IMG/VR virus record: IMGVR_UViG_3300024999_000080 | Span: 1-64,000 of that record | From: a virus | Reading direction: 5' to 3' (one strand) | Length of the DNA stretch: 64,000 nt | In this document: positions 6,779-63,300 of the stretch, piece by piece | Position numbering within the stretch: the stretch's first letter is position 1 | Layout of the letters: each line of letters begins with the position of its first letter | Position numbers and translations under genes: made by a program | Notes under the pieces: generated by a model | What the model was told of the DNA's origin: nothing | Databases searched by the model: none | The model's input: the letters and a program-made list of their open reading frames with translations, nothing else

Positions 6779-6858
6779 ATAATATTTTAAAACCTCTTGC
6801 GGATATCTTGTGATTAGTGTATACTTATTACATAAGGTAGACAAAGGAGGTTTTACAT

Positions 6859-8912
6859 ATGAAAAAACTTGTTTTTAGAGACATAGACATTTTACCTAAA
6901 GAAGAAATACCTTTCAGTATTGATATGTGGTATAACCGTTCTGATAAGTCGTGGGTAGTCCAAGTTAAGGATGAGGAGAATAATCAAATTGGAGATTCTG
7001 TTTATGTAGGAACTAAACCTGAAGCAATAAACCAAGTTAATAGATGGAAAGAAGAATACGGAATTCCATTGATTAGGACTTAAAAAGGAGTGTTGAGTGA
7101 TGGCGAAATGTTTAGAATGTGGGCAAGTTTATTGTGTTTATGGAGGAAGTGAAGGATCTGAATGTCCTACATGCAAAAGTGAAAATATAGATGTTTCAAT
7201 GGAGGTGCGAAATATATTTAAAACAACTAAAGAGGCATAATCCTAGGAATTATATAAGGGAAAGGAATGATTTTTATGTTTAAAAATGGAGAAATGGTTT
7301 GGTGTAGACCTAGCTTGATTGATGAACCTATTCTTGGTAAATATGTTCGTAAAATTAGTGATGCAGAACGAAAAGAAGGATATCGCGCAGGTCATATTGT
7401 AGAAATTAATGGTGTAGAACGTTGGGTTAATCTTGGGTTTTGTGGCACAAATAAAGAAGTTATAAAAAGTAAATAATCAAAGGAGAAATCAAAAATGGAT
7501 AAGAAATATATTGTAAAAGTAAAGGATACTAGTGATGAAACTATTCTAACATTACTTGATTTTGGATCAGTAGATTATTTATCACAAATCACTAATATCG
7601 GGAGTATCGTTATGGATTCAAAAAATGTTAGCAAACTTAGGGAATGTGAATGTGTTTTATCTGTAAACGAAAGTAGATTAGGTAAGTGGTTGGATGGAAT
7701 TAAAAAAGAAGGAGAGTGTGCATATGTCTATAAATTTAGTTCAGAATTTTATTGTAGAAGTTGATTCTGTAAAACTATTAAAGCAATATTTAGAATTGGC
7801 ACTGGGTACTGTGCTTAATTCTACTGAGGAAATTGCAGTAAAGGTTATCGACCATGATGATGAATGTAAGAATTTATATTATCCTTCTGTAATCTATGGT
7901 AAGAAAAACATTTTGCCAGTTCTAATGATTGAAGGTTGGTATGGCTCAGAAGACAATGCAGGAGACTCCTTCTTCAATGGTTATAAACCGTGGAAGTTAT
8001 TTGATAATAAAAACACAATAAACAAGTCTATTGAATACGTTATGAGTGTTTTGAGTGAAAATCAATCTAATCTAATAGAAAGATTTTCAAGAGATTGTGG
8101 AGATGGTTATGATTATGGGTTTAATCATTTTGATGGTTCTATACGTATTGGATACCAACTTATCAGTAACAAGAAGTTTCCAAATTCACTAACATTATCA
8201 CTTGTGCATATTTATTATGGCAAGTAATCTAAGGAAATTAAACAATAAAGGAGGGATAATTGGAATGACAAAAGTAACCTTAAAACTTTCAAGAACAAAT
8301 GAAAATGGTTTAAAATATACTGGAGATGCGGATAAATATTTAAACCTCCCTATTGTAATTGATGATAAGGTGATAGGAGTAGTAATAGAAATTATAAGTG
8401 ATTCAGGGGATTATATAGAAGTAGAAGGATTTTTGTATCGAGCAGGAGTAAATCTTATGAACATAGAAGAAGAATTAAGATTTTCAAATAATCTAAAGCG
8501 ACACAATAATAATCCTTCAAATGCCTATGATTTATTTTCTGCTAAGAAAGCAATGGAATATCTAAATATTTATGTAGAAGAATTTTTCTTTTTAACTAGA
8601 GATAAGACTGATGGGAATTACTATGAGAGAAAAGAATTAAGAAGATTAATTCATTTGTTAAATGATAAGATTGGAGAGTGAATCTTAATGGAAAAGATGC
8701 TTAAATGTCCAGATTGCAATTCAAATCTACAATTAAGAGTAGGGTATACAGGAGCCGATTGGAACACTGTAAAAGGCGAAGGGTCAGGATATGGCTGGGA
8801 AGTATCTTTACTCTGTTTAAATGATGATTGTAGACGTTTATTTACTATTGGGAATGTGAAAGATGAGTATCATTTTGTTGAAAGAAAAGATGAATTGAAA
8901 TGCGTCGAGTAA
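6859..8912 (+). other. Small hypothetical ORFs (6859, 7100, 7267, 7495, ~7724, ~8265, 8688)
   Basis: RBS-preceded co-oriented ORFs; promoter-like TTGCGG-N17-TATACT at 6797-6825. Confidence 0.65.
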
Positions 8913-8925
8913 GGAGGAATATAAA

Positions 8926-9360
8926 ATGAATTTAGAACAAGCAATATCAATAGCATCATTGGCTCATACAGGGCAATTGGATAAAGGTGGAGAACCATAT
9001 ATCTTACATCCTTTAAGAGTTATGATGAAACTCAAAGATGAAAGACAAAGAATTATTGCTGTGTTGCATGATGTAATTGAAGATACTAATATCACTGATA
9101 TTGATTTATTGTATCAAGGGTTAGGTTATGATGCTGTAAATGTTATTTTAACTTTGAGTAGAAGAAAAAGTGAAAGTTATGATGAGTATATTGATCGCAT
9201 AAGTAAAGATGAATTTGCTATAGAAATTAAGTTGGCAGATTTAGAAGATAATATGGATATTTCTAGGATTAAGAATATGACAGGGAAAGATTATGAACGA
9301 GTAGAGAAGTATGGTAGGGCTAGAGAGAAATTGATGAATGTTTTGATTAATATGGGATAG
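8926..9360 (+). CDS. HD-domain small alarmone hydrolase-like protein (RelA/SpoT HD, Mesh1-like)
   Basis: AHTGQLDKGGEPYILHPLRV, AVLHDVIEDT, IKLADLEDN. Confidence 0.85.
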   Translation: MNLEQAISIASLAHTGQLDKGGEPYILHPLRVMMKLKDERQRIIAVLHDVIEDTNITDIDLLYQGLGYDAVNVILTLSRRKSESYDEYIDRISKDEFAIEIKLADLEDNMDISRIKNMTGKDYERVEKYGRAREKLMNVLINMG

Positions 9361-9963
9361 TTTAAAATAAAAGGTTTAATTGAGATTAAGGAGGAAAGTT
9401 TAATGATGTTTATTAGTAAAAATCCAGTACCTTTTACTGTGAAAGATTTGAAGAAGCGTTTAGAATATATGGATGACAATGTACCAATTAGACTTTGTGG
9501 ACAAGGTGATGGTCAATTCTTGGCTCTGGTTGGTCGTAATAATTATGAAACAATGATGTCATTTCAAAAAGAAAGTTATTTTACTGGATGGGATTTTGAA
9601 AATAATTGTGAGAAGATAATGAAATAATATTCGATAGTTTAAAAGGGGATTTTATATATGTTAGAAAAGAAAATATACTATTGTGTCTATTGTGGTAAAA
9701 AGCATGTTTTCGAGTTTAATTTTGAATTAGCTACAGAATTATACATTCCTGAATGTGATTGCGGAGAAGAGCAAAGAATGATTAATCCATAAATAGTTGA
9801 AATAGATATTAGGTGGGAATTGAAAGGAGAATGCATATGAATCCATGTGCAAGGTGTCCTTGGTTGGGAGTAGATGCCGTTTGCAGAGAATGTGAATATC
9901 AAAGTGACTATATGAGATTATCAGAAAAGTTAAGAAGAGAAAAAGAAATTGAGGAGAATAAAT

Positions 9964-10482: not shown

Positions 10483-10486
10483 TTAA

Positions 10487-17700: not shown

Positions 17701-18374
17701 TTGTGGCAAGCACAATATTGGTACAGTGATAGGTGGGAACAAATTTTGCCAAGATTGTTTCATTGAATATAATCATATAGGAATATTCTCTATTCAATGG
17801 AATGGTGAATTAGTTCCTTATCATATTAATGAGTTTATAGATTGTGGATAAAGGAGATTACATAAATGAAAAAAGAAAAAGAAGGAACTTTTCTATGGGT
17901 TTTGCAAGAAGTAGCAAAATATGAGGGTGCATTAGCCAGTTGTGCAATTGAAGGGAATGAATTTGGAATAAAGCATTTAGATGCAATTGAGGATATGGAA
18001 TTGGTTGGAAAGTATTTGTATTTGAAGAAAGTGTTTGATTATTTGGAAGAGATGTATAATCCTAAAGAAAAGGAGTAAATTTAATGTATTTTATTACAGG
18101 AATTGAGAAGTTAGATAAAGATTATGGTGTAAAAGGTACTAGATGCTTCGGATATAAGAAAACATGGTTAGAAGCAGATCATTCTGTAAGGGGTAATTCA
18201 TGTGATATTAATGAGACTATTTATGATTATGCTGTAATTGAATTTATTGAATCTGGATTGCATTTTATTTGTGATAAGAGATGGTTTTATAAATTTGATT
18301 ATGATAAGAGAATGTATGAAGCAATAAGTGAACCTGAAGAAGTTAAGGGATTGTGTAATTTTAGTATTGGGTAA
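14699..18374 (+). other. Array of small hypothetical ORFs
   Basis: About 13 co-oriented ORFs of 50-120 aa with RBS; promoter TTGACT-N18-TATAAT at 17510-17539. Confidence 0.65.
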
Positions 18375-22990: not shown

Positions 22991-23020
22991 TTGACAAACA
23001 ATCAATAAATAATGTATACT
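22991..23020 (+). promoter_or_regulatory. sigmaA promoter of the nicotinamidase-vWA-PP2C-kinase operon
   Basis: TTGACA-N18-TATACT. Confidence 0.7.
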
Positions 23021-23078
23021 TAATACATGGTTAAGTTAAAACATTACATAAATTATTGAAAAGGATGTGAATCAAGAC

Positions 23079-23102
23079 ATGATCAAAGAGGTATATACAT
23101 AA
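23079..23102 (+). other. 7-codon leader ORF MIKEVYT
   Basis: AAGGATGTGA RBS 8 nt upstream; ends ATACATAACTAA like 18492..18515. Confidence 0.5.
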
Positions 23103-23172
23103 CTAATTTACATTGTTCTCTAATCCTTATTAAATACAAAAATAAAATTATAATGAAAGAAGGAAATTAAAA

Positions 23173-24081
23173 ATGAATACACGTTATGAAGAAATCGTAG
23201 ATGTACAAGCAATTGGAGTAGCACAAAACACTCGAAGTCTTAATGAAATTCTTGCAAAAGCAAATCAAGAAAAACTTCAACCTGCATCTAAAAATGTTGA
23301 GCAAGTATTGGTAATCGGAATAGACATCCAGAACGATTTTTTAGAGCAGGGAGCTTTAGCAGTACAAGGCAGTCATGGAGATACAGAAAGATTTACAAAA
23401 TTCATTTACGACAATATGGATAAAATTGCTCAAATTGCTGTATCAATTGACACTCATAACCCATTCCAAATTTTTCATCCTTGTTGGTGGGTAGATGCAG
23501 ATGGTAACAATCCTCCTCCATTCACACCAATTACTTTAAAAGATTTAGATGATGGAAAATGGTTTCCTGTAGTAGATCCAATGAAAAGTCGTAAATATGT
23601 TGAAGGATTAGAAGCAAAGGGTAAAAAGAATTTGTTAATTTGGACATATCATTGTCTTCAAGGTACTCATGGTGCAGCATTAGAAAATCAATTTGCAAAT
23701 ATGGTTTATTTTCACTCAGTTGCTAAGAAAACAATGGTTAATCGAATTGTTAAAGGAACAGATTATTTTAGCGAGATGTATGGAATATTTGCTCCAGAGT
23801 TTGATGAAAAAGGATTTATTAACCTTGATGTTTTGAATAAGATGGCTAAGTTTGATAAAATTGTAATCGGAGGTCAGGCTAGTGATTTCTGTTGTTATGA
23901 GAGTATTAAACAGTTACTAGAGTTTCACAAGAGTAATTCTGAACTTTTGAAAAAGGTATTCATTCTAGAAGATTGCATGTCTGCTGTGATGGATACTCCT
24001 GAACAAAGTAAAACTCGATATGATGAATTGAAGAAAGTATATAAAGTTAATATTGTAAAATCAACAGACTTAGTTCTTTAA
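23173..24081 (+). CDS. Nicotinamidase/isochorismatase-family cysteine hydrolase
   Basis: IDIQNDF, DTH, WTYHCLQGTHGA, KG, ASDFCC (D-K-C triad pattern). Confidence 0.85.
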   Translation: MNTRYEEIVDVQAIGVAQNTRSLNEILAKANQEKLQPASKNVEQVLVIGIDIQNDFLEQGALAVQGSHGDTERFTKFIYDNMDKIAQIAVSIDTHNPFQIFHPCWWVDADGNNPPPFTPITLKDLDDGKWFPVVDPMKSRKYVEGLEAKGKKNLLIWTYHCLQGTHGAALENQFANMVYFHSVAKKTMVNRIVKGTDYFSEMYGIFAPEFDEKGFINLDVLNKMAKFDKIVIGGQASDFCCYESIKQLLEFHKSNSELLKKVFILEDCMSAVMDTPEQSKTRYDELKKVYKVNIVKSTDLVL

Positions 24082-24874: not shown

Positions 24875-25498
24875 ATGTTTATTAATAAAATTGGATATCT
24901 TCATTTAGAAAAAGGATTGAATTGTCAAGATTTTGGTTTTGAGAGTGACAAGCATAAATGTATAATGGACGGTTGTTCAGAAGGAAAACATAGCGAAGTT
25001 GGTGCTAAATTATTTGCACATATGTTTTCAAAAGGATTAGATCCAATTGAATGTTTTGAAAAGTTGTCTGGTATATTTCCTGATTACGAGGATATAAGAG
25101 ACCATATGTTATTTACTGTATTATTCGTTTCCCAAACTGATGAAGAATACATAGTTGATATTTGTGGTGATGGATACATAATTAAGCAAAAACTTGATGA
25201 TTCGATTGAGTATGAAAAAATAGGAGAAGGTAATGCTCCAGAATATTATGCTTATAATTTTGTTTCTTCAGATCGTTTGAATAAGTATAAAGATGGTGTT
25301 GAATTCAAACATCACCTACTATCTAAAAGCGAATATAAGGCCGTAGGAGTGGCATCTGATGGCTTAGATTACATTCTTAATAGTCCTTTTAAGGATGAGT
25401 TTGAAAAGCATTTAATAGGAAGAAAAGAATTTGCAATCCGAAGACTAATCAATCGAGAACATAAATATTTTAAGGATGATATTTCAATTGTAATTTGA
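24875..25498 (+). CDS. PP2C-family protein phosphatase
   Basis: NCQD, DGCSEGKHSEVGA, CGDG, ASDG, DDISI. Confidence 0.85.
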   Translation: MFINKIGYLHLEKGLNCQDFGFESDKHKCIMDGCSEGKHSEVGAKLFAHMFSKGLDPIECFEKLSGIFPDYEDIRDHMLFTVLFVSQTDEEYIVDICGDGYIIKQKLDDSIEYEKIGEGNAPEYYAYNFVSSDRLNKYKDGVEFKHHLLSKSEYKAVGVASDGLDYILNSPFKDEFEKHLIGRKEFAIRRLINREHKYFKDDISIVI

Positions 25499-25512
25499 TT
25501 GAGGTGAAAGTG

Positions 25513-29357: not shown

Positions 29358-29774
29358 ATGCAAAATGTAAGTGTAAGTGTAAGTGTAAGTGTAAATAAAG
29401 TTTCACAAGAGATAAAAAGAGGAGATATTTGGTTAGCAGAATTAGAAGGAAGTAAAGGTTCAGAAATGAAAATGGTACGCCCCGTTGTAATCATTCAAAA
29501 TAATTTAGGGAATAAATATAGCCCATGTTGCACTATAATTCCATTGACTAGTAAGGTTGGGAAACGATGGATGCCCACTCACACAACCCTACATAAGACG
29601 GTTTGCTTATCAACTTTGAGTATTGCTCTCGCAGAACAGGTTGCAACGATTTCAAAGGAACGATTGACAAAATTTATTGGAGTGGTCGAAAAGTCAGAAA
29701 TAGTTGCTATTGAAGATGCTATTATGATTCAGTTGGGAATCAAACCAAGAAATAATATTGCGTATGCAAATTAA
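29358..29774 (+). CDS. mazF: MazF/PemK endoribonuclease, no adjacent antitoxin
   Basis: KRGDIWLAEL, GSEMKMVRPVVIIQNN.GN..SP, PLTS, PTH, AEQV.TISKERL. Confidence 0.88.
   Translation: MQNVSVSVSVSVNKVSQEIKRGDIWLAELEGSKGSEMKMVRPVVIIQNNLGNKYSPCCTIIPLTSKVGKRWMPTHTTLHKTVCLSTLSIALAEQVATISKERLTKFIGVVEKSEIVAIEDAIMIQLGIKPRNNIAYAN
29367..29394 (+). repeat. (GTAAGT)4 in-frame microsatellite encoding VSVSVSVS
   Basis: Direct reading. Confidence 0.9.
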
Positions 29775-32043: not shown

Positions 32044-32056
32044 TAAATAAATATAC

Positions 32057-32085
32057 TTGCATTACATTCTTGCATATGGTATACT
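32057..32085 (+). promoter_or_regulatory. sigmaA promoter for receptor-agrD
   Basis: TTGCAT-N17-TATACT with TG extension. Confidence 0.6.
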
Positions 32086-32125
32086 TGTTTTAGGTTAAGA
32101 AATGAATAAGAAAGAGGTAATACAT

Positions 32126-32941
32126 ATGCAAGGTGTAACAAATGCTTTATTGAATACTATTTTGGTAAGCATCCCAGAGGAATCATTTATTGTAATTATG
32201 ACATTGGTTTTTTTAAGAAGATTTGATATGTTGGACATCAGAATGTGGAAACACAGTTTGAAATGGATCATGGTTCCAACCTTGCCCGTAGCAATAATGA
32301 TAAACGTGTTTAGATATATAGTAATAATACCAAAACCATTAATGTCTTTAGCTTCATTTATATTAATGACAATTTTAATAATATTTATGATAATAAAAAA
32401 TAGTGTTGTTTTTGATAAAAAGTTATTATTTAAGACAATAATGTTTACAATATTAAGTTTTGTTGTGGTTGGATTAATAGAATTATTATATTATCCTATT
32501 TCACTCTCCTTGTTACATAAACAGATGTCTTATTTTAATAATAATATCCTATACAATCTTTTATTAGCAATTCCTACAAGAGTATTACAAATATGTATTG
32601 TGGCATTTATCATAATGAGGAAAAACAATGATATTGAGATAAATTTATTCAACACAATTGTGAGAAACAAGTTTTTTACAAAAAGTTTTATAATGATGAT
32701 AACTATTATGTTATTTGTAATAATTTATATGGGGAAGTTGCTAATGTTTGATAATATATTAGTGGAATTACAAGTCATTGATCAATTGTTCATAGTTTTA
32801 ATTGTTATAGTAACACCAATAATTTTAATTACTTGGTTCCTAATGTTTGTTAATTATTTATTAACAAAGGAAAAACAAATACAGCAGACTTACGAAAATC
32901 TTGTTATGCAAGATGACGTAATGCTTGATGTAGAAGATTAA
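32126..32941 (+). CDS. Multi-TM protein resembling an AgrC-type sensor domain, lacking a histidine-kinase domain
   Basis: About 7 hydrophobic segments and a short acidic tail; no H-box/N/G boxes; directly upstream of agrD. Confidence 0.55.
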   Translation: MQGVTNALLNTILVSIPEESFIVIMTLVFLRRFDMLDIRMWKHSLKWIMVPTLPVAIMINVFRYIVIIPKPLMSLASFILMTILIIFMIIKNSVVFDKKLLFKTIMFTILSFVVVGLIELLYYPISLSLLHKQMSYFNNNILYNLLLAIPTRVLQICIVAFIIMRKNNDIEINLFNTIVRNKFFTKSFIMMITIMLFVIIYMGKLLMFDNILVELQVIDQLFIVLIVIVTPIILITWFLMFVNYLLTKEKQIQQTYENLVMQDDVMLDVED

Positions 32942-32961
32942 AGTGAAAGGAGGTGAAATTA

Positions 32962-33078
32962 ATGAAAAAATACGCTATCGTCGCTGGAATGGTTGCCCTG
33001 GCCGCTACAATGTTTACTAATGTTTTTGCTTCTTGGTTGGGTGCACATCAACCAAAGTCCCCTAATTGCATGAAATAA
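32962..33078 (+). CDS. agrD: AgrD-type cyclic lactone autoinducer precursor (38 aa, missed by the ORF track)
   Basis: Perfect RBS AAAGGAGGTGA; MKKYAIVAGMVALAATMFTNVFA-SWLGA-HQPKSPNCMK matches clostridial AgrD leader-[C/S]xxxx-HQPxxP. Confidence 0.88.
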   Translation: MKKYAIVAGMVALAATMFTNVFASWLGAHQPKSPNCMK

Positions 33079-33090
33079 TATTATCCTACA

Positions 33091-33120
33091 TATAGGGAGG
33101 GACTTCGGTTCTTCCCTATA
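33091..33120 (+). terminator. 13-bp hairpin with C(UUCG)G tetraloop after agrD
   Basis: TATAGGGAGGGAC-TTCG-GTTCTTCCCTATA. Confidence 0.75.
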
Positions 33121-33158
33121 ACCATAAAATAATTGTATAGTTAATATTTACATATTTG

Positions 33159-34059: not shown

Positions 34060-34683
34060 ATGAGTTTTATTGAAAATGTTTCAAATTATTCTGCTAGGTG
34101 GTTGGCATCAAAAGTACCTAATGATAAATATCCTACAGTAGAAGATCAAATTGAGGTTTTTACCTATGGTTTTATGGTTATATGGGGATTTATATTTAAG
34201 ATCATATTGATGGTATCATTAGCATATATCTTTAATATTATAATCCCTATTATAATATTAACATTGACTTTCAGTAGTTTAAGAATTATCGCAGGAGGAT
34301 ACCATTTAAAGACCTATAATCGCTGTATGATTATTAGTGCTTTGCAATTCATTGTATCAGCATTAATAATCAAACACACATATCAATATTGGCCTATCCA
34401 AAACATCTATTCTCTGCTATTCTTTTGTGTATTAACGACACTATATATAATCTTCAGATATATTCCAAGAGACACACCCAACAAACCCATTATAGACCCT
34501 TTACAGATTAAAAAGTTTAAACGATGGTCATTATACTACCTTATCGCATGGACAGTTGTAATGACCATCTTCCTACTGTTTAATGTACATATAATTGTAA
34601 TTGCAAGTTGTTTTGGGTTATTGTTGGAGCTTTTTAGTGTGGGTAGAATAGGGCAATCGATATACTCTAAGCTAGATTCATAA
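34060..34683 (+). CDS. agrB: Accessory gene regulator B (AIP-processing membrane peptidase)
   Basis: EVFTYG, LRIIAGGYHLKTYNRC (catalytic H/C), PRDTPNKPI. Confidence 0.92.
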   Translation: MSFIENVSNYSARWLASKVPNDKYPTVEDQIEVFTYGFMVIWGFIFKIILMVSLAYIFNIIIPIIILTLTFSSLRIIAGGYHLKTYNRCMIISALQFIVSALIIKHTYQYWPIQNIYSLLFFCVLTTLYIIFRYIPRDTPNKPIIDPLQIKKFKRWSLYYLIAWTVVMTIFLLFNVHIIVIASCFGLLLELFSVGRIGQSIYSKLDS

Positions 34684-36042: not shown

Positions 36043-36118
36043 TTATGCACATATAATTATAATGAACTGCACTGGTCGCGTCGATAGGTGTGGTTCATAT
36101 AAAAATAAGTATAATTTC

Positions 36119-36147
36119 TTGACATTAGAGTAATAATTGTATATAAT
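36119..36147 (+). promoter_or_regulatory. Perfect sigmaA promoter for the DGQHR/recombinase-like operon
   Basis: TTGACA-N17-TATAAT. Confidence 0.85.
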
Positions 36148-36185
36148 GATGTTAATATTATTTTAATGTGAAGGGGTGATATTTA

Positions 36186-37544
36186 ATGCTTAAAGAAAAA
36201 TCAGTTGAATTGATCCAAGAATTAAATCCATTAATCGTTAAATATTCTAGCAATGACAAAGTAAGGAAAATAATTTTAGATGAGTTCTCTAAGAGGAATA
36301 TGAGTGGTCGTTTAGCACTTTCTATCCTTAATGAGAAAAGGGCATTATCAACATTAGACATTGATGAAGGTAAAGATTTAGTATTATTATTTGTTTTTAC
36401 AAATGCAATGTATGATGCATTAAATTTTAAAACAGATGATGATTCTCCAATTTTAGGAGATATCGATGAAGTATTAAGTATTGTTCCAAGCAATTTCTTT
36501 AATGAAATAGAAATGCAGAATATGGAAAATTATAAAGAGGAGAAAAGAGTAGAGACGAAAAAGCAATATGTGTTTCATAATATGCTTCGTGCGGCTGATG
36601 GGCATTATAAAGGTTTAGATCATGCTAAACATCTTGCAGAAATATATGCAGAAAATGAAATTATTTATAATTTTAAGAATCAACGTGATCCGCATATTGA
36701 TATTTATGGAGAAAAGAGAATTCAACTTGATAAAAACAAAGTAGAACGAATAATGAATAGACTGCTTGAAGGAATTCAATTTTCAGATGATATCAAATTA
36801 AATATACTTCATGATGGTGAAGATGAATTATATTTTAATGAAAAAACTGGAGATTTAACCTATATTTCTGGAAGTATTAATATATTTGATGGTTATCATA
36901 GACTCATAGCTAATTCTTTAGCTATCGCAAAAAATGCAGAATTAGAGTTTAACTGGGGGTTAGTAATTACTAATTTCAGTGAGAATAAAACATTAGAATT
37001 TATGACCCAAGTTAATGAGCAAAAACCCATGAAAAAAGAGCATATAAAGAACCTAGATTCTTCAAGATTGGGAAATGTTGTAGTAGATGCAATTAGAGAC
37101 ATTGGTACTAGTGAATTTGGTCAGAATATTAAAGAATCAGATGCAGAATTGAAGTTTTCTGGTATGACAAAAAAGTCTACTTTAGCTATTAGTATAGAAG
37201 AATGTTATAAGGAAAAACTAACCAATAGACTTCAAGCAAAGCCCATAGCAAAGCATATTGCTAACGTTATGGACTATATCATTGGATTGAATGTTGAAGA
37301 GTTTATAGAGCGTCCTGACGCTTCTCAGACATATATCAACCACAAGAATATGTTCTCTGGATATGTTGCTTTATCAGAAAGATTATATGATGTAAAGAAT
37401 TGGGAAGACTTATTAGAAGAAATTCTTAATCAAATTGATTTCAGTGTTAAAAATCCTTTCTGGAAAGATATTGGAATATCAGATTCCGATATGAAAAAAT
37501 CTACCAGAAATAACCTATATAAATTCTTTCAGAAATTAGTTTGA
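36186..37544 (+). CDS. DGQHR/DndB (ParB-Srx-like) domain protein, SPbeta YopQ-like
   Basis: NQRD, INIFDGYHRL, QVNEQKPM; position upstream of a recombinase-fold gene. Confidence 0.6.
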   Translation: MLKEKSVELIQELNPLIVKYSSNDKVRKIILDEFSKRNMSGRLALSILNEKRALSTLDIDEGKDLVLLFVFTNAMYDALNFKTDDDSPILGDIDEVLSIVPSNFFNEIEMQNMENYKEEKRVETKKQYVFHNMLRAADGHYKGLDHAKHLAEIYAENEIIYNFKNQRDPHIDIYGEKRIQLDKNKVERIMNRLLEGIQFSDDIKLNILHDGEDELYFNEKTGDLTYISGSINIFDGYHRLIANSLAIAKNAELEFNWGLVITNFSENKTLEFMTQVNEQKPMKKEHIKNLDSSRLGNVVVDAIRDIGTSEFGQNIKESDAELKFSGMTKKSTLAISIEECYKEKLTNRLQAKPIAKHIANVMDYIIGLNVEEFIERPDASQTYINHKNMFSGYVALSERLYDVKNWEDLLEEILNQIDFSVKNPFWKDIGISDSDMKKSTRNNLYKFFQKLV

Positions 37545-37572
37545 TTAATATATTTAATAAGGGGTGTTTAAT

Positions 37573-38619
37573 ATGTCCATCAATGAAGTTAACGAAGAAT
37601 TGCAAGATGAAGAGGTAGTATTTGAGGTTGATTCAGAAGTTAAAAAGGAGTTTCTAGAAAATCAATTAAAATCTACTAGAAGTTTCTACACTTATGTCCT
37701 CAAAAGAGCAGATGAATTTGAAACACAGGTTGGCAAGAAAATTTATGACTTCAATATTGAAGATCGTGATGAAATGCTAACTGTTCAATTCAAGAATAAG
37801 AACAAATGGACGTTTCAATCTGCTTTATCTCCTTTAAAAACTTATGTTGACTTCTGTATATCTAAAAGTTTAGTTAGACATAATGAGAACAGATTTATGA
37901 CCATTCTTCCTGCTGATTATAAGGATTATATTAATGACCAAGCACAATGTAATTCTTATATTCCTTTATCTAAATCTAGAGAACTTCAAAAAAGGTTGAA
38001 AAATGATCAAGATAAATTGATTATAGAGTTATCTAGTTTGTCTGTCAGAGGAAGAACTGAAAAGGGGAATACTCTTGAAGAACTCGTAAATTTAAAGGTT
38101 AAAGATATTAAATGGAAGACTAAAGAATTATATCTTACTAAAAACAATGGTGAACAAAGATATATTGAAACTGATGATTACACATTAGGTTTACTCAAAC
38201 GAGTTATAAATCAAACTTTCTATGTCTCTAATAATGGGTTAAAATCTAAGAAAAATGAGGATGGTATTTATGAAGAGACTAATAGAGGTAGGGCTATAAG
38301 TCCGACTGAATATGTATTTAGAGTTCCCGGAAAGAACAGATTAGGTAAAGTAGATTATCAATTTTTCACTAGCAGAATTCAAAGGATGCAAGGTTGGTTA
38401 GAAGCTCCTTATTTGACTAGTTCGAATTTATACTTCTCAGCGATTTTAGACTATGCAAAAGAGAAGATGGATGAAAAAAAGGCAAAAGGAGAAAAATGTG
38501 AATTAACCAGAGAAGACTATATTCAAATTAATGAGCGATTTGAGTTTGGTGAAAATGGAGAAAAATATGTATTCAAAACCAGAGATTTAGTTAAAATGTA
38601 TTTTGGTAATGGAGAGTAA
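37573..38619 (+). CDS. Tyrosine-recombinase-fold protein with degenerate catalytic box II; YopR/MrpR-like master repressor candidate
   Basis: SAM-like N-terminus (LKTYVDFC); RG....LEELVNLKVKDI box I; TSSNLYFS replaces HxLRH. Confidence 0.65.
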   Translation: MSINEVNEELQDEEVVFEVDSEVKKEFLENQLKSTRSFYTYVLKRADEFETQVGKKIYDFNIEDRDEMLTVQFKNKNKWTFQSALSPLKTYVDFCISKSLVRHNENRFMTILPADYKDYINDQAQCNSYIPLSKSRELQKRLKNDQDKLIIELSSLSVRGRTEKGNTLEELVNLKVKDIKWKTKELYLTKNNGEQRYIETDDYTLGLLKRVINQTFYVSNNGLKSKKNEDGIYEETNRGRAISPTEYVFRVPGKNRLGKVDYQFFTSRIQRMQGWLEAPYLTSSNLYFSAILDYAKEKMDEKKAKGEKCELTREDYIQINERFEFGENGEKYVFKTRDLVKMYFGNGE

Positions 38620-38624
38620 ATATT

Positions 38625-39029
38625 ATGAAAAATACACTTTTAGAAATGTGGAAAAAATACAATTTACTTCTCTCTTTTAAAAATGAGATGAATAAACGCG
38701 GATATCCATCAAAGAGTCTGTATAGTATTGAAACACAAATGAGTGTTTTGATGCTATTGATTGAAATCGAAAGTATAAATGTTTTAGAAACCTTACTAAA
38801 AGGCAAAACTTATTTCAGATTATTAAAGAAAATTAACAGGGGATTTGAGTATTTATATGAAATTGTAGAATCTCCAGAGGACTGGGTATTAAACAAAATT
38901 GAAAATGATGTTGATGCATGGATTGATTCAAATGTATTAATTTTTACATGCAAAAGTTCTACTGCTGTATTTAGTAAGATATCACGCAAAAGTGATGGAG
39001 CAAAATATATTGATGGAAAATTTCAATAG
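38625..39029 (+). CDS. Hypothetical protein
   Basis: ORF in an operon with the recombinase-like gene. Confidence 0.6.
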   Translation: MKNTLLEMWKKYNLLLSFKNEMNKRGYPSKSLYSIETQMSVLMLLIEIESINVLETLLKGKTYFRLLKKINRGFEYLYEIVESPEDWVLNKIENDVDAWIDSNVLIFTCKSSTAVFSKISRKSDGAKYIDGKFQ

Positions 39030-39041
39030 GAGGTGTGCTTT

Positions 39042-39449
39042 ATGAATGTAGGGGAAAAAATTAGTCTATACAAAGAAAGATTAAATTTTAGAGATTATCA
39101 AGAATTTGGCAGGGCAGTTGGTATCAGTGGCAATTGGATAAATGAAACATCTAAGAAATCAGAAATTAAACAAATCAACGATTTGGGTTATTTAGTTAAA
39201 TTATGTGGATTTTTAGGCATCACGATAGATGAATTTTTAAGAGATGACATAATTGAAACAGATGAATCAATTGAACTTAATATTATTGATGCAAATACGG
39301 AAGATATTGGCATTTTGCTCAATAATATGATATTATTACTAGGGAAGCAGGGTATAAAAATAGATGGAGCGTTAATGAATGATAAAAGCAAAGAGATTTG
39401 TATAGATAGTCTTGCGGTAGTAAAAACACTAGTTAAACAGCATTTATAA
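39042..39449 (+). CDS. Xre-family HTH regulator
   Basis: VGEKISLYKERL...QEFGRAVGIS...LVKLCGFLGITIDEFL. Confidence 0.75.
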   Translation: MNVGEKISLYKERLNFRDYQEFGRAVGISGNWINETSKKSEIKQINDLGYLVKLCGFLGITIDEFLRDDIIETDESIELNIIDANTEDIGILLNNMILLLGKQGIKIDGALMNDKSKEICIDSLAVVKTLVKQHL

Positions 39450-39465
39450 ATGGAGGTTAATAATT

Positions 39466-40326: not shown

Positions 40327-40421
40327 ACTATTTATTAAATTATTGAGGTATAATTTTATATCTCAATAGTACATAAAATTATATGATTAATCAAAATATA
40401 ATAAGAAAGTGAGTTAAGTGA

Positions 40422-44000: not shown

Positions 44001-46755
44001 ACAGAAGTATACTATATTGAAAGTAAATACTCTGAAAAATATGAGTATTGTAAAGAATGTAAAACTGGTCATTCAACTGGAAAACAAATTTTATATTATA
44101 TTAGACCATGTACTATTTGTGGTTTTGAGATAGAAGGGAATCATTCTTTTTCATATAATATAAAAAATAGTTTTACATTGCGTATTAGGGTAATTGATGA
44201 GAATGATTCATCAAAAGTCTTTAATGTGAATGAAGTTTATTTTACTGAAGAAGACGCACAAGAGATGGTGGATAAGATGAGTAATAATCTAAGCAAATAG
44301 AATAGTTGATTGATTTGAATAATGAAAGGAGGAAAAATCATGAGTATATATTTAGACACTGTAAATTGCATCGTCTGTGGAAAAGAAGCATTTATTTATA
44401 CTGGACATGTAAAAGATAATAATGAAGATATTATTGCAGGATTTTGTTCAAATGATTGTTATGAATCTATAAAATCAAATAATATTGGTTGCTATGGAGA
44501 ATACAAAGAAGAGATGGGAAAACAAAGTAGAATGTGGTAGAAAGGAGAACAAAAAAGCAAATGAGAAATAAACTAAAATTAATAATAGAAAAAGAAAAAA
44601 CTTATACTGACTGGCTTAAACATGAACATAATTCTCTTACATACAATATCCAGCAATTGACAAATGAAAAATGTGATATTGAAAACAAACTAATAAACAA
44701 TCTCATCTGCCCAAAATGTTATTTTCCATTAACACAAAATAAATTCACAACTTATGGCGAAACTTATTACGAATGTACTAGTTGTGATTTTTCTATTCAG
44801 CAGTAAAAAGACCCTGCTCGAAAGCAAGGCCAAGTGCAATAAGACGAGAACAAAATTAGTTGACGAATGGTAGTATATCCATATCAGGGATAATTATACA
44901 AGATGAAAGAAGGAAATTAACAAATGAAATCAAGAGATATTGTAATCTTATTAGGATTAACAGAAATTGCATCACAATGTATTGATAATGAAACAATGTC
45001 AGAGGATGAATTCAAAAGTTTCTTTGATGGTTGTGATCTTGATAAAATTGAAGAGCAGAATCAAATAGAAGAAAATGTTGCACTAGAAGAATTAAAAATT
45101 ATGCTAAAAGAATATGGAAATATAATAAGAGAGGAACAAAATGAAAAATGAAAATATTAAATGTAATTTAGAAGTTGAATGTCGAGATGGAACGATTCAG
45201 TGTAAAACCATTTGTCCTGTTCATTTTATGGAAGATAGATGCTGTAAATTTTGTTTGGAAATTAATGTTTGTGATAAGATTTGTGGTTTTATTAAAATCA
45301 ATTTTAAGGAGTGAATACATAATGAAATGTATAAAGGAGAATTGTAATCTATCATTCATGTCAGGTAATTGTGGATATTGTAATGTTTTGGAAGCATTTG
45401 TTTTTGGAATGGAGAATAATGAATTAAAATGCTCTTTACCAGATAAAATTGTAGTAATGGAAAAGGAATTAAATCATTATAAATGTGCTTTGGATAAGGT
45501 GATAATGTATCATGATGATAACGGAGGAATAGATTAATTTATGAAATGTATTGGTGAGAAATGTTCTAGTTTCAAAACAGATTATTTTTATCCATTATGT
45601 TTAGAAAAAAATTGTAGGATATTTGAAGGTAGTGAATGTAAATTACTTGATAAAATTAAGGAAACTAGAGATGATTTAGTTAGAATGTGTGATTTGTTTG
45701 AGAATTTATTGGAGATTAATGATTATAGTTTAGATGAAATTGTTGATGGAATCAATTAAAAAATGTATTCGTTTGAATTAAAAGAAAGGAGAAATTTTAT
45801 GTTTCTTACTGGCGAGAATGTAACAATTCGTGATTCTGATTTTGAATTTTATTTAAAAGGCAAACCTACTGGAGAATATGCAAAAGGTAGGATTATTAGC
45901 AAAAATGGTTCTTTATATGTTGTTAAATTATATTGTAACGGAGAAGTTTATGAGATTAAGGAGTCATATCTTTATATATCATGGTCGTGAATCGTATTTG
46001 AACTGAGTGAAAGGAGAGTGATAATTATGTGGAATTTCATTGCAGGAATATTTTTAGGATATATGCTCAGACCATTAATAGAAACAATCATAGGAATAGC
46101 GGTTAAGATATTTAAAAATGCTTATTCAGAATATAAAAATCAATAGAGAGGATGATAAATAAATGGAAGATGCGTGTTATAACTGTGTTGCTAATTGTCC
46201 AGGAGATATTCATTGCAAGCCATTTAAATGTAAATATTATAAACGCTATGATAATGATGTGCTAGATCATGAAATGCAAACAAACAAAGATAAAAGAATT
46301 ATGATAACTATTGGATATCTTGAACATTTTAGTCAAAATAGTATGGAGAAATATGTATTCTATTCTTACAAAGAATTCTTTCAGTTTTGGAGTCATCATA
46401 GTAATCAAGGGATAATTAAATTATTTGGCTGTAGTGAGATGGAGGATGATTAATGTCTGGATTAACACCTGAAAAGAAAGCAATTCTTAAAGGTCTTATG
46501 GGTAGTTGCAAATGTCCAATTAGTCTAAGTTTGTTGTGTATGGAGGAGAGATATAAAATGAGAAAACCATTAATTGAACTTATAGTACCTAAGTCTGGAG
46601 ATTGGGAAGTATTAAGAATGAATTTAGGTGAAGATTTTAAACACGAAGGACATTCAATTCCTAATGGAGCATGGATTAAGTTATTAGAAATGTTAGGTTA
46701 TGAGGTTGAAGTAAAATGTATTTCAGATGAAGATATGGATAATGAGAGATATTAG
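41080..46755 (+). other. Array of small hypothetical ORFs, many Cys-rich; includes 45141..45314 and paralogues 45322..45537 / 45541..45759
   Basis: Co-oriented RBS-preceded ORFs; MKCIKENC/MKCIGEKC...C.L.DKI similarity. Confidence 0.65.
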
Positions 46756-48438: not shown

Positions 48439-50442
48439 ATGGATGAAAATATTCAAATGCAAGAATTGGTCAAGAAGTTAAACAAACACTCTTACGAATA
48501 TTATACTCTCAGTAACCCAAGTATATCAGACTCAGAGTTCGACCTTTTATATCGAAAGCTAGAAGCCTTAGAGGCGAAATTAAATTACATATTGCCTGAC
48601 AGTCCGACACAAAGAATTGGTGATATTGTCTTAGATAAATTTGAAAAGCATGAGCATAAGTTTAGACTCTATTCAATGGATAAAGCACAGAACATGGATG
48701 AACTTGATACATGGCATAATAAAAATAAATCATTTGTAAAACAAAATAATTTACCTGAGATTCAATATGTTGTAGAGAAAAAGTTTGACGGGTTATCAAT
48801 TAATAATACTTACAAAGGCGTGTTGTTATCTTCTGCAACTAGGGGAACCGGTGGAATCAAAGGTGAATTAGTCACAGCACAAGTAAAAACAATCAAATCA
48901 ATTCCATTAAGTATTGATAGTAATATTTTATTAGAAGTTCATGGTGAAGCTTATATGAGAAAAAGTGTATTCAATAAATATAATGAAACTGCTAAAATTC
49001 CTTTAAAAAATGTAAGAAATGGAGCATCAGGAGCAATCAAGAATTTAGACGTAAAGGAAACTGCTAATAAAAATTTAGATGCTTTCTTTTATGATATTGG
49101 ATACAGCGAAGGATTAAAATTCAATACTTACATGGAAATGATGGAATTTATCACAAAAATGGGATTACCAGTTGATCAAGATTATTATCTTTGTAATACC
49201 ATTGAAGAAGTTAAAGAAAAAATTGCTTTAATTGAAGAACTAAGACCAAACCTAGATTATGAAATTGATGGAGCAATAGTAAGTATTAATGATATCAAAA
49301 CAAGAGAAGCAATGGGATTCGCTACAAAGTTTCCTAGATGGGCAATTTCATTTAAATATGAATCAGAAGAAACAACAACAGAATTATTAGATATTGAATT
49401 TAGAACAGGTCGTACAGGAAAAGTAACCCCTAGAGGAACTTTAGAGCCTGTAGACTTAATGGGTTCGACTGTTTCTTATGCAACTCTAAACAGCATGGAT
49501 GATATTAAGAAGAAAGGGGTAAAAATCAATGCAACAATATTTATTCGAAAGTCTAATGACGTGATCCCTGAGATATTAGGAGTTGTAGAAGATAGTGTTA
49601 CGGATGATATGCCTGATATTAAAATGCCAACACATTGTCAATCATGTGGAAGTGAATTAGTACAAGATGGAGTTCATTATTTTTGTAGAAACTCATTGAA
49701 TTGTAAAGCACAAATTGTAAAATCAATAGCTCATTTTGGTACTTTGCAAGCAATGAATATTGATGGATTTAGTGAGCAAACTGCGTTACTTTTTGTTGAG
49801 AATGGAATTATTAGTAATGTTTTAGATTTGTTTAGTTTGGAAAGCAAAAAGGATAAGATTATTAAACTACCCAAATTTGGAGTTAAGAAATATAACAATC
49901 TGATTCAAGCAATTGAAAATTGTAAGAAGGTTAAATTAGAATCCTTTGTTTACGGATTAGGTATTGAAGGTGTTGGACTTGGGGGATCAAAGAATCTATG
50001 TAAGCATTTTAATAATGATATTGCTCTGATTATGACTGCAAATTTAAGCGAGTTATTAGCAGTAGATGATTTTGGCCCAATTACGGCAGAAAATGTTTAT
50101 AATTATTTTATGGATGATAATAATTATTTGCAAACAATTGAATTATTAGGTCATATTGAAATTAAAAAAGAAGAAAAGAAGGAAGTGGTTAATGTGAGTG
50201 ATAGTTTTTTTAAAGGCAAAACTACGTACTGTACTGGAACTTTTGAATCATATAAAAAGGAACAGTTAAAAGCAATATTAGAAGATTTAGGAGCAACGTT
50301 TGCAAATGGATTTACAAAATCTCTTGATTTCTTAATTGTAGGTAAAATGAAAGGTTCTTCGAAAGTCGAAAAAGCTATTAAAGCAAATATTCCTGTTTTG
50401 AGTGAAGATGAGTTTTTAGCAATTATTGGAGGGGTAAAATAA
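48439..50442 (+). CDS. ligA: NAD+-dependent DNA ligase
   Basis: YY...ISDSEFD, EKKFDG, TRG, EVHGE, DG, PRWAISFKY, GRTG.VTP, C4 Zn finger, HhH, BRCT. Confidence 0.96.
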   Translation: MDENIQMQELVKKLNKHSYEYYTLSNPSISDSEFDLLYRKLEALEAKLNYILPDSPTQRIGDIVLDKFEKHEHKFRLYSMDKAQNMDELDTWHNKNKSFVKQNNLPEIQYVVEKKFDGLSINNTYKGVLLSSATRGTGGIKGELVTAQVKTIKSIPLSIDSNILLEVHGEAYMRKSVFNKYNETAKIPLKNVRNGASGAIKNLDVKETANKNLDAFFYDIGYSEGLKFNTYMEMMEFITKMGLPVDQDYYLCNTIEEVKEKIALIEELRPNLDYEIDGAIVSINDIKTREAMGFATKFPRWAISFKYESEETTTELLDIEFRTGRTGKVTPRGTLEPVDLMGSTVSYATLNSMDDIKKKGVKINATIFIRKSNDVIPEILGVVEDSVTDDMPDIKMPTHCQSCGSELVQDGVHYFCRNSLNCKAQIVKSIAHFGTLQAMNIDGFSEQTALLFVENGIISNVLDLFSLESKKDKIIKLPKFGVKKYNNLIQAIENCKKVKLESFVYGLGIEGVGLGGSKNLCKHFNNDIALIMTANLSELLAVDDFGPITAENVYNYFMDDNNYLQTIELLGHIEIKKEEKKEVVNVSDSFFKGKTTYCTGTFESYKKEQLKAILEDLGATFANGFTKSLDFLIVGKMKGSSKVEKAIKANIPVLSEDEFLAIIGGVK

Positions 50443-57542: not shown

Positions 57543-57549
57543 ATAATAC

Positions 57550-57597: not shown

Positions 57598-57619
57598 AAT
57601 AAGAAAAGAGATGATACAT

Positions 57620-58939
57620 ATGAGTAGTTCATTAATTGGAGACAGCAAACTCAACTTTTTCCCAACGGAAATTTGGGAGACATATCGTTTATTAGGATTG
57701 CTTGGCAGAATTGATATTGATTATATGAAAAAGAATTACCTCAAAGAATATTATACAGAGCAAGGTTTATATCAAGAAATTGCGATGAGATCACTCGACT
57801 CATCTGTTCCTATAGACTATTGTTATTATGATAAATGGCTAAATGATAAAGATTATGATAAAATTAAGCAGTATTGTGAATATACATTGGGTTATGGAGA
57901 TAAATTTCCTATTGTTGTTGCTGATTTATTTGCAGGAAATGGAGACTTCTTAGACGTAATAAAATCTTTTATTCCTAAGAAAAATAATAGCAATGATTTC
58001 TTATTAATTGCTAATGAATTGGAAGAACATAGGTTTAATTGTATCAAGGAAAATAAAAATATTGATGATTGCTATAATTCTTCATTTGAGGAATTAAGAT
58101 TACCTAAAAATTCAATTTCTCTTATGCTTTATAATTGTCCGTATGGAAGCACAAATGGAGTAAGAAATGTTAAGCACTACTTATCCATGATCTTAGATAA
58201 ACAAATCCTCTACAACCCCTCTACATCAAAAGATTACAAATCAGGATACATAGCATTCGTAATCAGAAAAGATGATTTTCTTGATTCGCTAGACATCTTA
58301 TCTAAAAACTTTGACATCCTAAAAAACTCAATCTACAAAACAAATCCAGAAGAATATGCAAAATTCAAACAATATATTTTCATTGCTCATCTTAAACGCC
58401 ATCCTTACGACCTCTCCAATGCCCTACAAGCAATGGATTTCCAAAAACAATACAATGAAGTAAAAGAAATAATCCTCTCTGAACCAGAATTTAACCTCAG
58501 ACAATACAACACTTATCAATCAATGAATTATCCTTACATTGACTATGAAACTGCAAAAGAAAATAATAAATATACTGAAGCACCTGAAACTCATATCAGC
58601 AAAAATGATTCAATTTGGAAATGGGTAAAAGGAATTACTGAATTAAAAGATTTAGGTGAAGAAAAATTAGTTGTTCCTAAACCACTTAAATTAGGTGAAA
58701 TTAGTAATCTCTTAGCATCTGGAATGATAAATGGAGAAATATCTATTGATGGAATAGGTAGACATGTTGCTATTGGTGGAACAAAATCAATTGAGAAAAA
58801 AGAAATAAGTAAATATAAAGATGAAAATGGAGAAAATGTTACTGAAACAAAGATAATTAAAATGAGTTTGCCCTATCTTAATATTTTATGCTCATATAAT
58901 GGCAAATTAATCATAAAAGAACTTGGAGATGGTACATAA
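57620..58939 (+). CDS. SAM-dependent amino-DNA methyltransferase (DUF6094-like)
   Basis: FFPTE, DLFAGNG (motif I), ANELEEHR, LYNCPYG (NPPY variant). Confidence 0.8.
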   Translation: MSSSLIGDSKLNFFPTEIWETYRLLGLLGRIDIDYMKKNYLKEYYTEQGLYQEIAMRSLDSSVPIDYCYYDKWLNDKDYDKIKQYCEYTLGYGDKFPIVVADLFAGNGDFLDVIKSFIPKKNNSNDFLLIANELEEHRFNCIKENKNIDDCYNSSFEELRLPKNSISLMLYNCPYGSTNGVRNVKHYLSMILDKQILYNPSTSKDYKSGYIAFVIRKDDFLDSLDILSKNFDILKNSIYKTNPEEYAKFKQYIFIAHLKRHPYDLSNALQAMDFQKQYNEVKEIILSEPEFNLRQYNTYQSMNYPYIDYETAKENNKYTEAPETHISKNDSIWKWVKGITELKDLGEEKLVVPKPLKLGEISNLLASGMINGEISIDGIGRHVAIGGTKSIEKKEISKYKDENGENVTETKIIKMSLPYLNILCSYNGKLIIKELGDGT

Positions 58940-61501: not shown

Positions 61502-61517
61502 ATTGTAAAATAAATAT

Positions 61518-61547
61518 TTGACAGTGATATTATGCGTATGTTATAAT
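61518..61547 (+). promoter_or_regulatory. sigmaA promoter
   Basis: TTGACA-N18-TATAAT with TG extension. Confidence 0.7.
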
Positions 61548-61578
61548 GAATATATACTAAAGAAAGAGGAGGTAAGAA

Positions 61579-63300
61579 ATGAAAGGTTTATATCAAAAAT
61601 ATCTTATATTCAAATCGGACGGTTCACCAGTTGACCCAAATGCAGAATACATAGTTTTAAGAATAGATGCTGATCAATGTGCAAGAAGAGCAGTAAGATA
61701 TTATGCTAATCAGTTACTTCGCGAAGGAAGTTTAACTCAATTAGCTGATGACCTAAGAAAAAGATGTGATTATTACTGGATGAAAGAGCAAGGATTTACG
61801 GATGAAGAAATAGAACGATCTTTAAAAGAAATACATAAATAATCCAATAAGTTATTTCATTCGAAGGAGATTAGAAAGGAGGTTACTTATGAATAGATAT
61901 CCAAGTGAAACTGAAAACTGTGGTAACTGCAAATACAGTCATGGTGATTGTTATGATCGTTGGTATGAAATTAATGAAGTAGATAATAGTAATTATCTTG
62001 GCAAGGGTGAAATAATTAACTGTTGGGAACATGAATAGTTAAGGAGAGTGTTTAATTTAATGAAGAAAACGGTAGAATTAAAGTACCTAACACCTTTGGA
62101 ATTTGTGGCAATGTATGCCAGAGAGGAATTAAAAGAAGAGTGTTTTAAACTTGAAAAATATGCTCAAAAGACTATATTGGGAATTATTGAATTGATTAGC
62201 AAAAATGATACAGATAAATTAATTAATGAAGTTTTTGATAAATTTGCTCCAGAAGTTGGATATCTATATTGTGAAGATCATAATATATTTCACGAATATG
62301 AAAAATGTCCATTCTGTCAATTAGGGATACGAGTTGGTTAAATAATTATAAAATAAATATTAGGAGGAATACATAAATGGAAGAGTTAAAATTATACAAA
62401 TTTAATGATGGTGATTATGAGCATTGGATTTTTAGCAAATAACCTTGTCCAAGCAATTGATTACTTTGTTCATGATTATTGCGGAGAAGATGAGTCACAG
62501 TTTGAATATGGTTTTACCATCAATCTAATTGATAATGGAACATTAGATATCGAATTTGAAGATGAAGGCGAAATGATATCTTGGAGAAAAATTATGAATG
62601 AGTGTAAAGTAATTCCAATTTGTATTGGGACGAATGTAGATTAATTCTCATATTTTCAGGAAGTTACGATTCTAAGAATCAAGCTATAAGCCACTTTCAA
62701 GGTTCGTAACTTCCATTAAAAAGTCGATTTAAATGGAGGTGAAATTATTGAAAAAATATCCTTGGAATAAATCAGAATTAGAATCAATACATAATGAAAT
62801 ATTACAAACTACATCTGAACAAAAATATTATATCTTAGGGGTAGCTCAAGGATTTTATCATATTTATCAAGTGTTAAATAAACATAAGGATAAAACTTTT
62901 ACTGGTTTAGAATTGATGGAAATTATCAAATATGCAGGTAGTAATGAGCAAAAAATAAAAGAATATTTTGATAGATTGTTATTAGATTTAGAAAGTGAAT
63001 AAAAGAAAGAAGGAATTAACAATGACAAAAACTACAGGATTAACTATCCATCTTTATACAACTAAAGAAGAATTGGACAATGCTAAAAATGGAATCAGCA
63101 CAATTGTAGGATGGACTAAAGAACAGAAACAAACTGGTGCAATTTATCATATCAGTGCGTCTGCGGATATTTGTGATGTTCTAGAAAAGGAAGTAAGAAT
63201 TAATGTTTCTAAAGTAAAAGAACAGATGGATGCGGCTGGATTAATGGTAGGTGAAGCAATTGGTAAAGAATTAGAAAAGGTATTTAAGGCATTTGCTTAA
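61579..63300 (+). other. Small hypothetical ORFs; 62377..62644 is frameshifted at a T5 run near 62430
   Basis: MEELKLYKFNDGDYEHWI continues as LANNLVQAIDYF in another frame. Confidence 0.6.

Follow-up and report, generated by a model that had tools for sequence, protein, structure and literature searches.

The 64,000-nt window analysed here, the first 64 kb of the IMG/VR virus record IMGVR_UViG_3300024999_000080, raises the question of whether the messages of a phage are laid out to be cut by the RNase MazF. Its genes include two for proteins of the PemK/MazF family next to an agr-type signalling module. The initial annotation noticed the pentamer TACAT in 5′ leaders and between Shine-Dalgarno (SD) sequences and start codons, and proposed that chosen transcripts are switched off by MazF as the output of an agr-MazF switch. 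EndoA/MazF of Bacillus subtilis and Listeria cut only U^ACAUA, and Staphylococcus aureus MazF prefers the same site (bioRxiv 10.64898/2026.08.06.743204). In phi3T and SPbeta, the host MazF has been tied experimentally to the arbitrium decision between lysis and lysogeny (bioRxiv 10.1101/2023.04.27.537455; Nat Microbiol 2024; PMC10769878). The system of the window is probably an agr-linked variant of this arbitrium-MazF switch, with a phage-borne MazF. The proposed link to MazF is upheld by the exact match to the Firmicute site, its strand specificity, its peak between SD and AUG, its co-variation with phage mazF, and the same pattern in phi3T. The proposed choice among transcripts is not upheld.

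Fifteen related genomes were compared, nine with PemK/MazF genes and six without; these six are 80–100% complete. Expected counts in the spacers between SD and start codon are position-specific and computed per genome, and those in coding DNA come from synonymous-codon shuffles. These per-genome nulls replace a Fisher test of MazF-positive against MazF-negative genomes on the pentamer (P 9e-5), which was discarded because AT content confounds it. The six MazF-less relatives, T4 and Clostridia chromosomal loci serve as controls for enrichment, and phi3T as the positive control.

In the SD-start spacers of the nine MazF-encoding phages, TACATA is seen 43 times against 8.4–9.3 expected (P ~1e-15), an about five-fold excess. 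It is above expectation in each of the nine genomes and ranks 12th among 494 hexamers, with only SD words ahead of it. The spacers of the six MazF-less relatives contain one copy (1.5 expected). The base following TACAT in the spacers of the MazF-encoding phages is A in 23 of 25 cases, when those in which it would be the A of ATG itself are excluded, and control words are unbiased. This preference had been predicted from the published sixth base, independently of the data behind the initial annotation, and the prediction held.

The excess is also seen outside the spacers. On the sense strand of the coding DNA of the MazF-encoding phages, TACATA occurs 745 times versus 463 expected (z 18.5), the first rank among 4,054 words. 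This excess is equal over the three reading frames, and neither the reverse complement of TACATA nor its one-base neighbours are enriched there. The other intergenic RNA of these phages contains 179 copies versus 89 expected (rank 6 of 3,661). The corresponding counts for the MazF-less relatives are 97 versus 116 in coding DNA (rank 3,250) and 9 versus 12.8 in other intergenic RNA. The excess follows the sense orientation of the genes whichever DNA strand is coding, which makes it a feature of the RNA. Nor does it depend on GC content: G014 (43% GC) is enriched and G002 (33% GC) is not. Clostridia chromosomal loci below 33% GC contain 125 copies versus 131 expected, and 3 of their 304 spacers carry one; T4 (35% GC) has 21 versus 34 expected, and 0 versus 0.9 in its spacers.

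What the excess tracks is the carriage of mazF by the phage: it is present in eight of the nine MazF-encoding genomes and in none of the six MazF-less ones. On the tree of a conserved marker protein, there are two or three independent contrasts between presence and absence of MazF, and the excess goes with MazF in each of them. MazF-less G007 and G008 are nested among enriched MazF-positive lineages, while MazF-positive G014 is the sister of the unenriched, MazF-less G011 and G012. AgrB is encoded by six of the nine MazF-encoding genomes and by none of the six others. Because G014 has MazF and the excess without AgrB, the excess tracks MazF more tightly than agr.

Along the genomes, the excess is even. 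No regional heterogeneity was detected in eight genomes at 15-kb resolution (P 0.2–1.0), which argues against transcripts having been chosen individually, as the initial annotation had it; it is the exception that appears chosen, namely an operon of YopQ- and YopR-like genes that is free of sites. Genes with a spacer site are no shorter than others, nor do their coding regions contain significantly fewer sites.

The site-free operon (Table 1) is flanked by further site-free DNA, the full stretch running from 35803 to 40369. Its yopQ-yopR gene order is as in phi3T, and it lies 3′ of agrB. The orthologous blocks of six relatives also contain no site, and the pooled count of the seven genomes is 0 versus 14.4 expected (P 5e-7). 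The antisense word of TACATA is present in the spared blocks, and most of the orthologues are only 23–31% identical. Within the window genome alone, the largest site-free gap is not significant (P 0.28), and significance is reached only by pooling the orthologous blocks.

The enrichment of the MazF site (UACAU) in transcripts of phi3T and other SPbeta-like phages, SPbeta itself included, is already known (PMC10769878). In phi3T coding DNA, TACATA occurs 83 times versus 39.6 expected and ranks first of 3,654 words, and its SD-ATG spacers contain 5 copies versus 0.38 expected (P 5e-5). The site-free stretch of phi3T is phi3T_93–97, which comprises the yopP/Q/R homologues and is located just after aimR-aimP-aimX (0 versus 5.4, P 0.005). 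The two systems thus resemble each other in that TACATA is first in coding DNA, enriched in spacers and missing from the repression operon. In both, transcripts are rich in MazF sites, and a peptide module lies directly 5′ of a yopQ-yopR-type operon. Unlike in phi3T/SPbeta, the signal module of the window is agr-type, with AgrB, a candidate AgrD and a kinase-less receptor-like protein in place of AimR/AimP. MazF is phage-encoded, and of its two copies one carries a fused N-terminal domain. Another difference is that no MazE, AimX or YosL-type antitoxin was recognised, although no homologue search for AimR, AimP, AimX or YosL was made. The control in phi3T/SPbeta is experimental, that in the window predicted from sequence.

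The best PDB matches of MazF1 and MazF2 are 4MZM, 2MF2, 4MDX, 1NE8 and 4HKE, which are S. aureus MazF and B. subtilis EndoA. The catalytic Arg (..VRPV.. / ..GNRL..) and Thr (..LTS..) of both phage proteins align with those of these two enzymes, and the MazFs of G003, G010 and G014 belong to the same EndoA/S. aureus MazF clade. The N-terminal extension of MazF2 shows a weak match to transcriptional regulators. No match to PF04014, the MazE-type antitoxin family, was found in G000, G001, G009, G014 or G008, and a divergent small antitoxin may be missed by such a search. The open reading frame (ORF) 5′ of mazF1 (28679–29233) has no Pfam or PHROG family, and neither the candidate AgrD ORF nor the receptor-like protein (32102/32126–32941) has a Pfam family.

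These data can be put together as follows. The mRNAs of the phage, loaded with UACAUA across the genome, would allow MazF activity to shut down phage gene expression. The spacer, the single-stranded stretch between SD and AUG, is the densest placement, and one cut at U^ACAUA there would part the ribosome-binding site from the start codon. Under MazF, nearly all phage messages would be destroyed or left untranslated, the spacer sites being the most efficient route. Being site-free, the YopQ/YopR(MrpR)-like repression operon is proposed to stay expressed. The nuclease would most likely be one or both of the phage-borne, antitoxin-less MazFs beside the agr-type module, possibly together with the host MazF. 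The whole could be considered as the agr-linked counterpart of the lysis/lysogeny switch of phi3T/SPbeta. More tentatively, this family of large phages may have swapped arbitrium for an agr-type cyclic peptide and taken MazF aboard with no antitoxin that can be recognised. A private peptide would then act through a private RNase on nearly every message, the spacer sites would serve as a translational kill switch, and the repressor operon would be immune.

Several points weigh against this reading. The observations are sequence statistics, homologies and gene order; that the RNA is cut, what a cut does, which MazF makes it and that the peptide governs it are inferences from these. The specificity of the phage MazFs is deduced from the best PDB matches (~60–84 bits for the two window proteins), and a few changes can be enough to alter the specificity of a MazF. 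The exemption from sites does not extend to the mazF genes, the mazF1 message itself carrying one. No MazE is found that would let the phage tolerate its own MazF. G003, a complete genome of 153 kb, encodes an EndoA-clade MazF and shows no coding excess (30 versus 26), the sole exception among the nine; of all the MazFs, that of G003 diverges most, with 57 bits to EndoA. The signature does not require a phage-borne enzyme, as phi3T shows it and has no mazF of its own. The hosts of the MazF-less relatives may differ from those of the MazF-encoding phages. In the comparison with G001 and G004, individual sites of the window are kept in 7 of 14 and 4 of 11 cases, versus 4.9 and 3.6 expected neutrally, and so are not conserved beyond drift. 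Gene starts were assigned by an ad hoc rule of ORF plus SD.

The sites might instead be read by the host's own MazF, as in phi3T/SPbeta, with the phage MazFs as modulators that titrate host MazE, form mixed dimers or, in the fused form, bind DNA. The full signature of phi3T agrees with this, as do the lack of MazE in the phages and the extra N-terminal domain of MazF2 with its regulator match. The closest cellular homologues of MazF1, 43–45% identical and of the EndoA clade, are from uncultured gut and environmental Clostridia, which also speaks for this reading. The tracking of phage mazF by the excess, nested tree contrasts included, and the catalytic Arg and Thr kept in both phage MazFs nevertheless make a purely modulatory role unlikely. 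The presence of host MazF could, however, co-vary with phage mazF. It is also conceivable that a cut in the spacer matures messages, releasing near-leaderless or separately stable ones from long polycistrons, so that genes with spacer sites stay or turn on. A leaderless-mRNA model, with activation and not silencing, has been proposed for Escherichia coli MazF, whose site is the three bases ACA. The proposed roles of E. coli MazF are strongly contested (bioRxiv 10.64898/2026.08.06.743204). What the phages have in common with that disputed model, which finds no support here, is the position of MazF sites just 5′ of AUG: the site most often abuts AUG, with no nucleotide in between for 20 of 55, so that only ACAU would be left. 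Moreover, 34 of the 55 spacer-site genes have no further pentamer in the coding region versus 26.7 expected. This difference is small in terms of sites (43 versus 50), however, and the single operon that should persist has no site at all, not even in a spacer. Coding DNA is enriched and not depleted, which would lead to the destruction of most messages regardless. Maturation is quite improbable.

Translational repressors, too, bind in the spacer, and another factor co-inherited with mazF, such as a translational repressor or a different RNase, could bind or cut TACATA, with the match to the MazF site being coincidental. The link between enzyme and motif is, after all, an indirect one. Against this stand the exact match to one hexamer of 4,096, in which even the sixth base, defined only recently, agrees, and the same signature in the unrelated phi3T, where dependence on MazF is experimental. 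A coding excess independent of frame is unfit for an operator, and such a factor is very improbable. An origin by chance, or as a side effect of AT-richness and codon-pair bias, would agree with the pentamer being at chance level over the whole window, with a cluster of sites near 23 kb that is within chance, and with the many AT-rich words that differ between the MazF-positive and MazF-negative sets. The hexamer, however, reaches z 10–18 or P ~1e-15 under synonymous-codon, dinucleotide and position-specific nulls. The 33%-GC relative, T4 and the Clostridia loci are null, while the 43%-GC relative is enriched. For the family-level signal of the hexamer, chance is effectively refuted.

Cutting by MazF within the phage family is the preferred explanation, and it can be compared with other systems of RNA cleavage. 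The T4 endoribonuclease RegB cuts GGAG in the SD sequences of early messages. It belongs to a protein family other than MazF, its motif lies within the SD itself, and it serves the early-to-middle transition of a lytic phage. Similar to RegB, the window would have a phage-encoded, sequence-specific RNase with sites in translation-initiation regions, where one cut putatively inactivates the message. Unlike the case of RegB, the sites extend beyond any single block of genes, and their context is a lysogeny module. The MazF regulons of B. subtilis and S. aureus share with the phages the enzyme clade and the site U^ACAUA; for these cells it is proposed that the distribution of sites sets which RNAs respond, and that essential RNAs avoid the site (PMC11780869; bioRxiv 10.64898/2026.08.06.743204; PMC7470975). 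In the cellular regulons a minority of genes have a site, whereas nearly the whole phage transcriptome is loaded. The hot spot in the SD-AUG spacer is seen in the phages, and the papers on the cellular regulons make no mention of one.

Three features were not found in the literature searched: the hot spot in the spacer, a repressor operon without sites, and the version with a phage MazF and an agr signal. If the proposed reading is true, MazF control of the phage life cycle, known from the SPbeta-like arbitrium phages of Bacillus, would be more general and modular. The same output layer, a UACAUA-loaded transcriptome with a site-free repressor operon, could then be driven by another peptide system and a phage nuclease. 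This would be a second form of a decision that runs from a peptide signal through MazF to the phage transcriptome, and the first with a nuclease owned by the phage. What emerges as a positional rule is that MazF sites are placed by preference in the SD-AUG spacer, where they are about five-fold enriched here and enriched in phi3T as well. The mechanistic rationale would be that a spacer cut detaches the start codon from its ribosome-binding site without leaving a truncated reading frame. The ranking of sense hexamers against synonymous shuffles might serve as a cheap genomic screen for phages governed by a sequence-specific RNase.

The record to which the window belongs is 76,877 bp in length, with a CheckV completeness of 44%. 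The window has 29% GC, and almost all of its genes are on the + strand. The source sample appears to be a groundwater metagenome. No near-identical phage records were found by a search with the window. Its relatives are 120–230 kb in length with 26–44% GC, and the hosts of this phage family are probably uncultured, Clostridia-like bacteria. The coordinates of the features are collected in Table 1.

Table 1. Features of the window, with positions counted from its first nucleotide.
Feature	Position	Strand	Remarks
TACATA	6829..6834	+	3 nt 3′ of a TATACT -10-like box (6820-6825)
TACATA	6854..6859	+	Between SD (AAAGGAGG) and ATG of 74-aa gene 6859-7083; last A is the A of ATG
TACATA	17859..17864	+	Between SD (AAAGGAG) and ATG of 70-aa gene 17866-18078; kept in G001
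Promoter-like TTGACA-18-TATACT	22991..23020	+	11/12 matches; for the operon starting at 23173
TACAT followed by G	23024..23028	+	At the expected transcription start of that promoter; not kept in relatives
TACATA	23045..23050	+	In the leader of the operon at 23173; absent from relatives
Mini-ORF MIKEVYT*, 7 codons	23079..23102	+	Last codons and stop are TACATAA, site 23096-23101
TACAT followed by T	23109..23113	+	Not kept in relatives
MazF1, 138 aa, PemK/MazF family	29358..29774	+	PF02452, 91 bits (cut-off 23.1); own TACATA at 29590
TACATA	32121..32126	+	Between SD (AAGAGGT) and true ATG (32126) of polytopic receptor-like gene 32126-32941
Small ORF, 41 aa, candidate agrD	32953..33078	+	Label from the initial annotation, unconfirmed by Pfam
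MazF2, 267 aa	33232..34035	+	C-terminal PemK domain, residues 113-217; PF02452, 75-77 bits (cut-off 23.1); no TACATA inside
AgrB	34060..34683	+	PF04647, E 3e-35
Spared operon	36186..39449	+	Directly 3′ of the agr-mazF genes; 0 sense TACATA vs 3.2 expected
YopQ-like	36186-37544	+	phi3T_96/YopQ, E 4e-20
YopR/MrpR-like repressor homologue	37564-38619	+	phi3T_97/YopR, E 6e-13; Pfam MrpR_N_CB, 1.5e-12
ORF	38625-39029	+	In the spared operon
ORF	39033-39449	+	In the spared operon; 'Xre-like' in the initial annotation
TACATA	45316..45321	+	Between SD (AAGGAGTG) and ATG of 71-aa gene 45322-45537; absent from G001 and G004
TACATA	57615..57620	+	Before ATG 57620 of a 442-aa ORF; in-frame ATG also at 57611; weak SD
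TACATA	62370..62375	+	Between strong SD (AGGAGG) and ATG 62377 of 21-codon ORF 62377-62442; kept in G001 and G004

All 11 TACAT sites listed in the initial annotation are present where it had placed them, and the six between SD and ATG (6854, 17859, 32121, 45316, 57615 and 62370) are all full TACATA hexamers. The ATG after 62370 opens an ORF of only 21 codons, and the SD for 57620 is weak. Whether the pentamer is enriched over shuffled and reverse-strand DNA, the comparison by which the initial annotation was to be judged, depends on where it is counted. Over both strands of the whole window it occurs 259 times versus 251 ± 17 expected, which is no enrichment. The sense strand of the genome has a mild excess, 138 versus ~111 (Markov models, P 0.003–0.01). 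In strict intergenic sense DNA, 26–27 copies are found versus 13.5 expected, a count reached by none of 500 dinucleotide shuffles, and the reverse complement is depleted there. The SD-ATG spacers of the window genome contain four strictly called TACATA versus 0.5 expected.

The spacer site of the receptor-like gene, which the initial annotation had taken as feedback on the receptor-agrD mRNA, is kept in G001, G004 and L014 and is absent from paralogues of 47% identity. G001 (complete, 230 kb) has two receptor-like paralogues. One is close to the window copy, with TACATA in its spacer; the second, of 47% identity, combines a stronger SD with the lack of a site. Another TACATA, at 33087 just 3′ of the stop of the candidate agrD, is kept in G001 and G004. 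It is located directly 5′ of a GC-rich hairpin with a CTTCGG loop (33087–33125), a probable terminator, and a cut at this site would strip the 3′ stabiliser off the receptor-agrD message. Upstream of the receptor-like gene, TTGCAT-17-TATACT (32056–32084) may exemplify a phage-specific variant of the -35 box; CTTGC, TTGCA and TGCAC are over-represented in the intergenic DNA of G000, taken over the whole record (z ~4).

The site at 6829 is probably at a transcription start, to judge from the box before it, and is perhaps only partly in RNA. A 17-nt word, TGTATACTTA plus T or A plus TACAT, is seen twice, at 6818–6833 and 23013–23028, and each copy is a -10-like box together with the probable start site of an operon.

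The second copy belongs to the leader of the operon starting at 23173, in which four TACAT lie within 90 nt. This cluster, singled out in the initial annotation, is within chance (P 0.02–0.07), and 12 of 142 equally common pentamers cluster likewise. Two of the four sites are not hexamers, 23024 being TACATG and 23109 TACATT. Only the site at 23096 is kept in relatives of 90% identity, where ORF and site are found in L003, L004 and L012. TACAT had been described as spanning the stops of both leader ORFs; it spans that of the mini-ORF at 23079–23102, and the other stop is not spanned. The mini-ORF (MGKEVYT* or MGKEVHT* in relatives) and the block upstream of it are the best-conserved part of this leader in L003, L004 and L012, and the seven codons may encode a regulatory leader peptide. 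An Rfam scan of the window gave no match, indicating that the leader is not a known riboswitch. The names nicotinamidase (23173–24081) and MTase (57611) could not be sustained; neither product, the latter of 442 aa, has a Pfam or PHROG family.

Other observations concern words and genes around this system. GATTTA is the second most over-represented sense hexamer in the coding DNA of the nine MazF-encoding phages (1,154 versus 932, z 12), and TAATC is enriched in their SD-start spacers (22 versus 11). Homologues of MazF1 with 38–40% identity are seen on L084, L085, L088 and L091, contigs binned as metagenome-assembled genomes of Woesearchaeota or other archaea, at least one of them (L085) from groundwater. 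They may be mis-binned phage or bacterial contigs, or real transfers. In the window, 24875–27216 encodes a PP2C-type phosphatase (E 3e-7) and, after it, a Ser/Thr protein kinase (E 1e-10), and an NAD-dependent DNA ligase is encoded at 48439–50442 (phrog_3869, E 3e-170).

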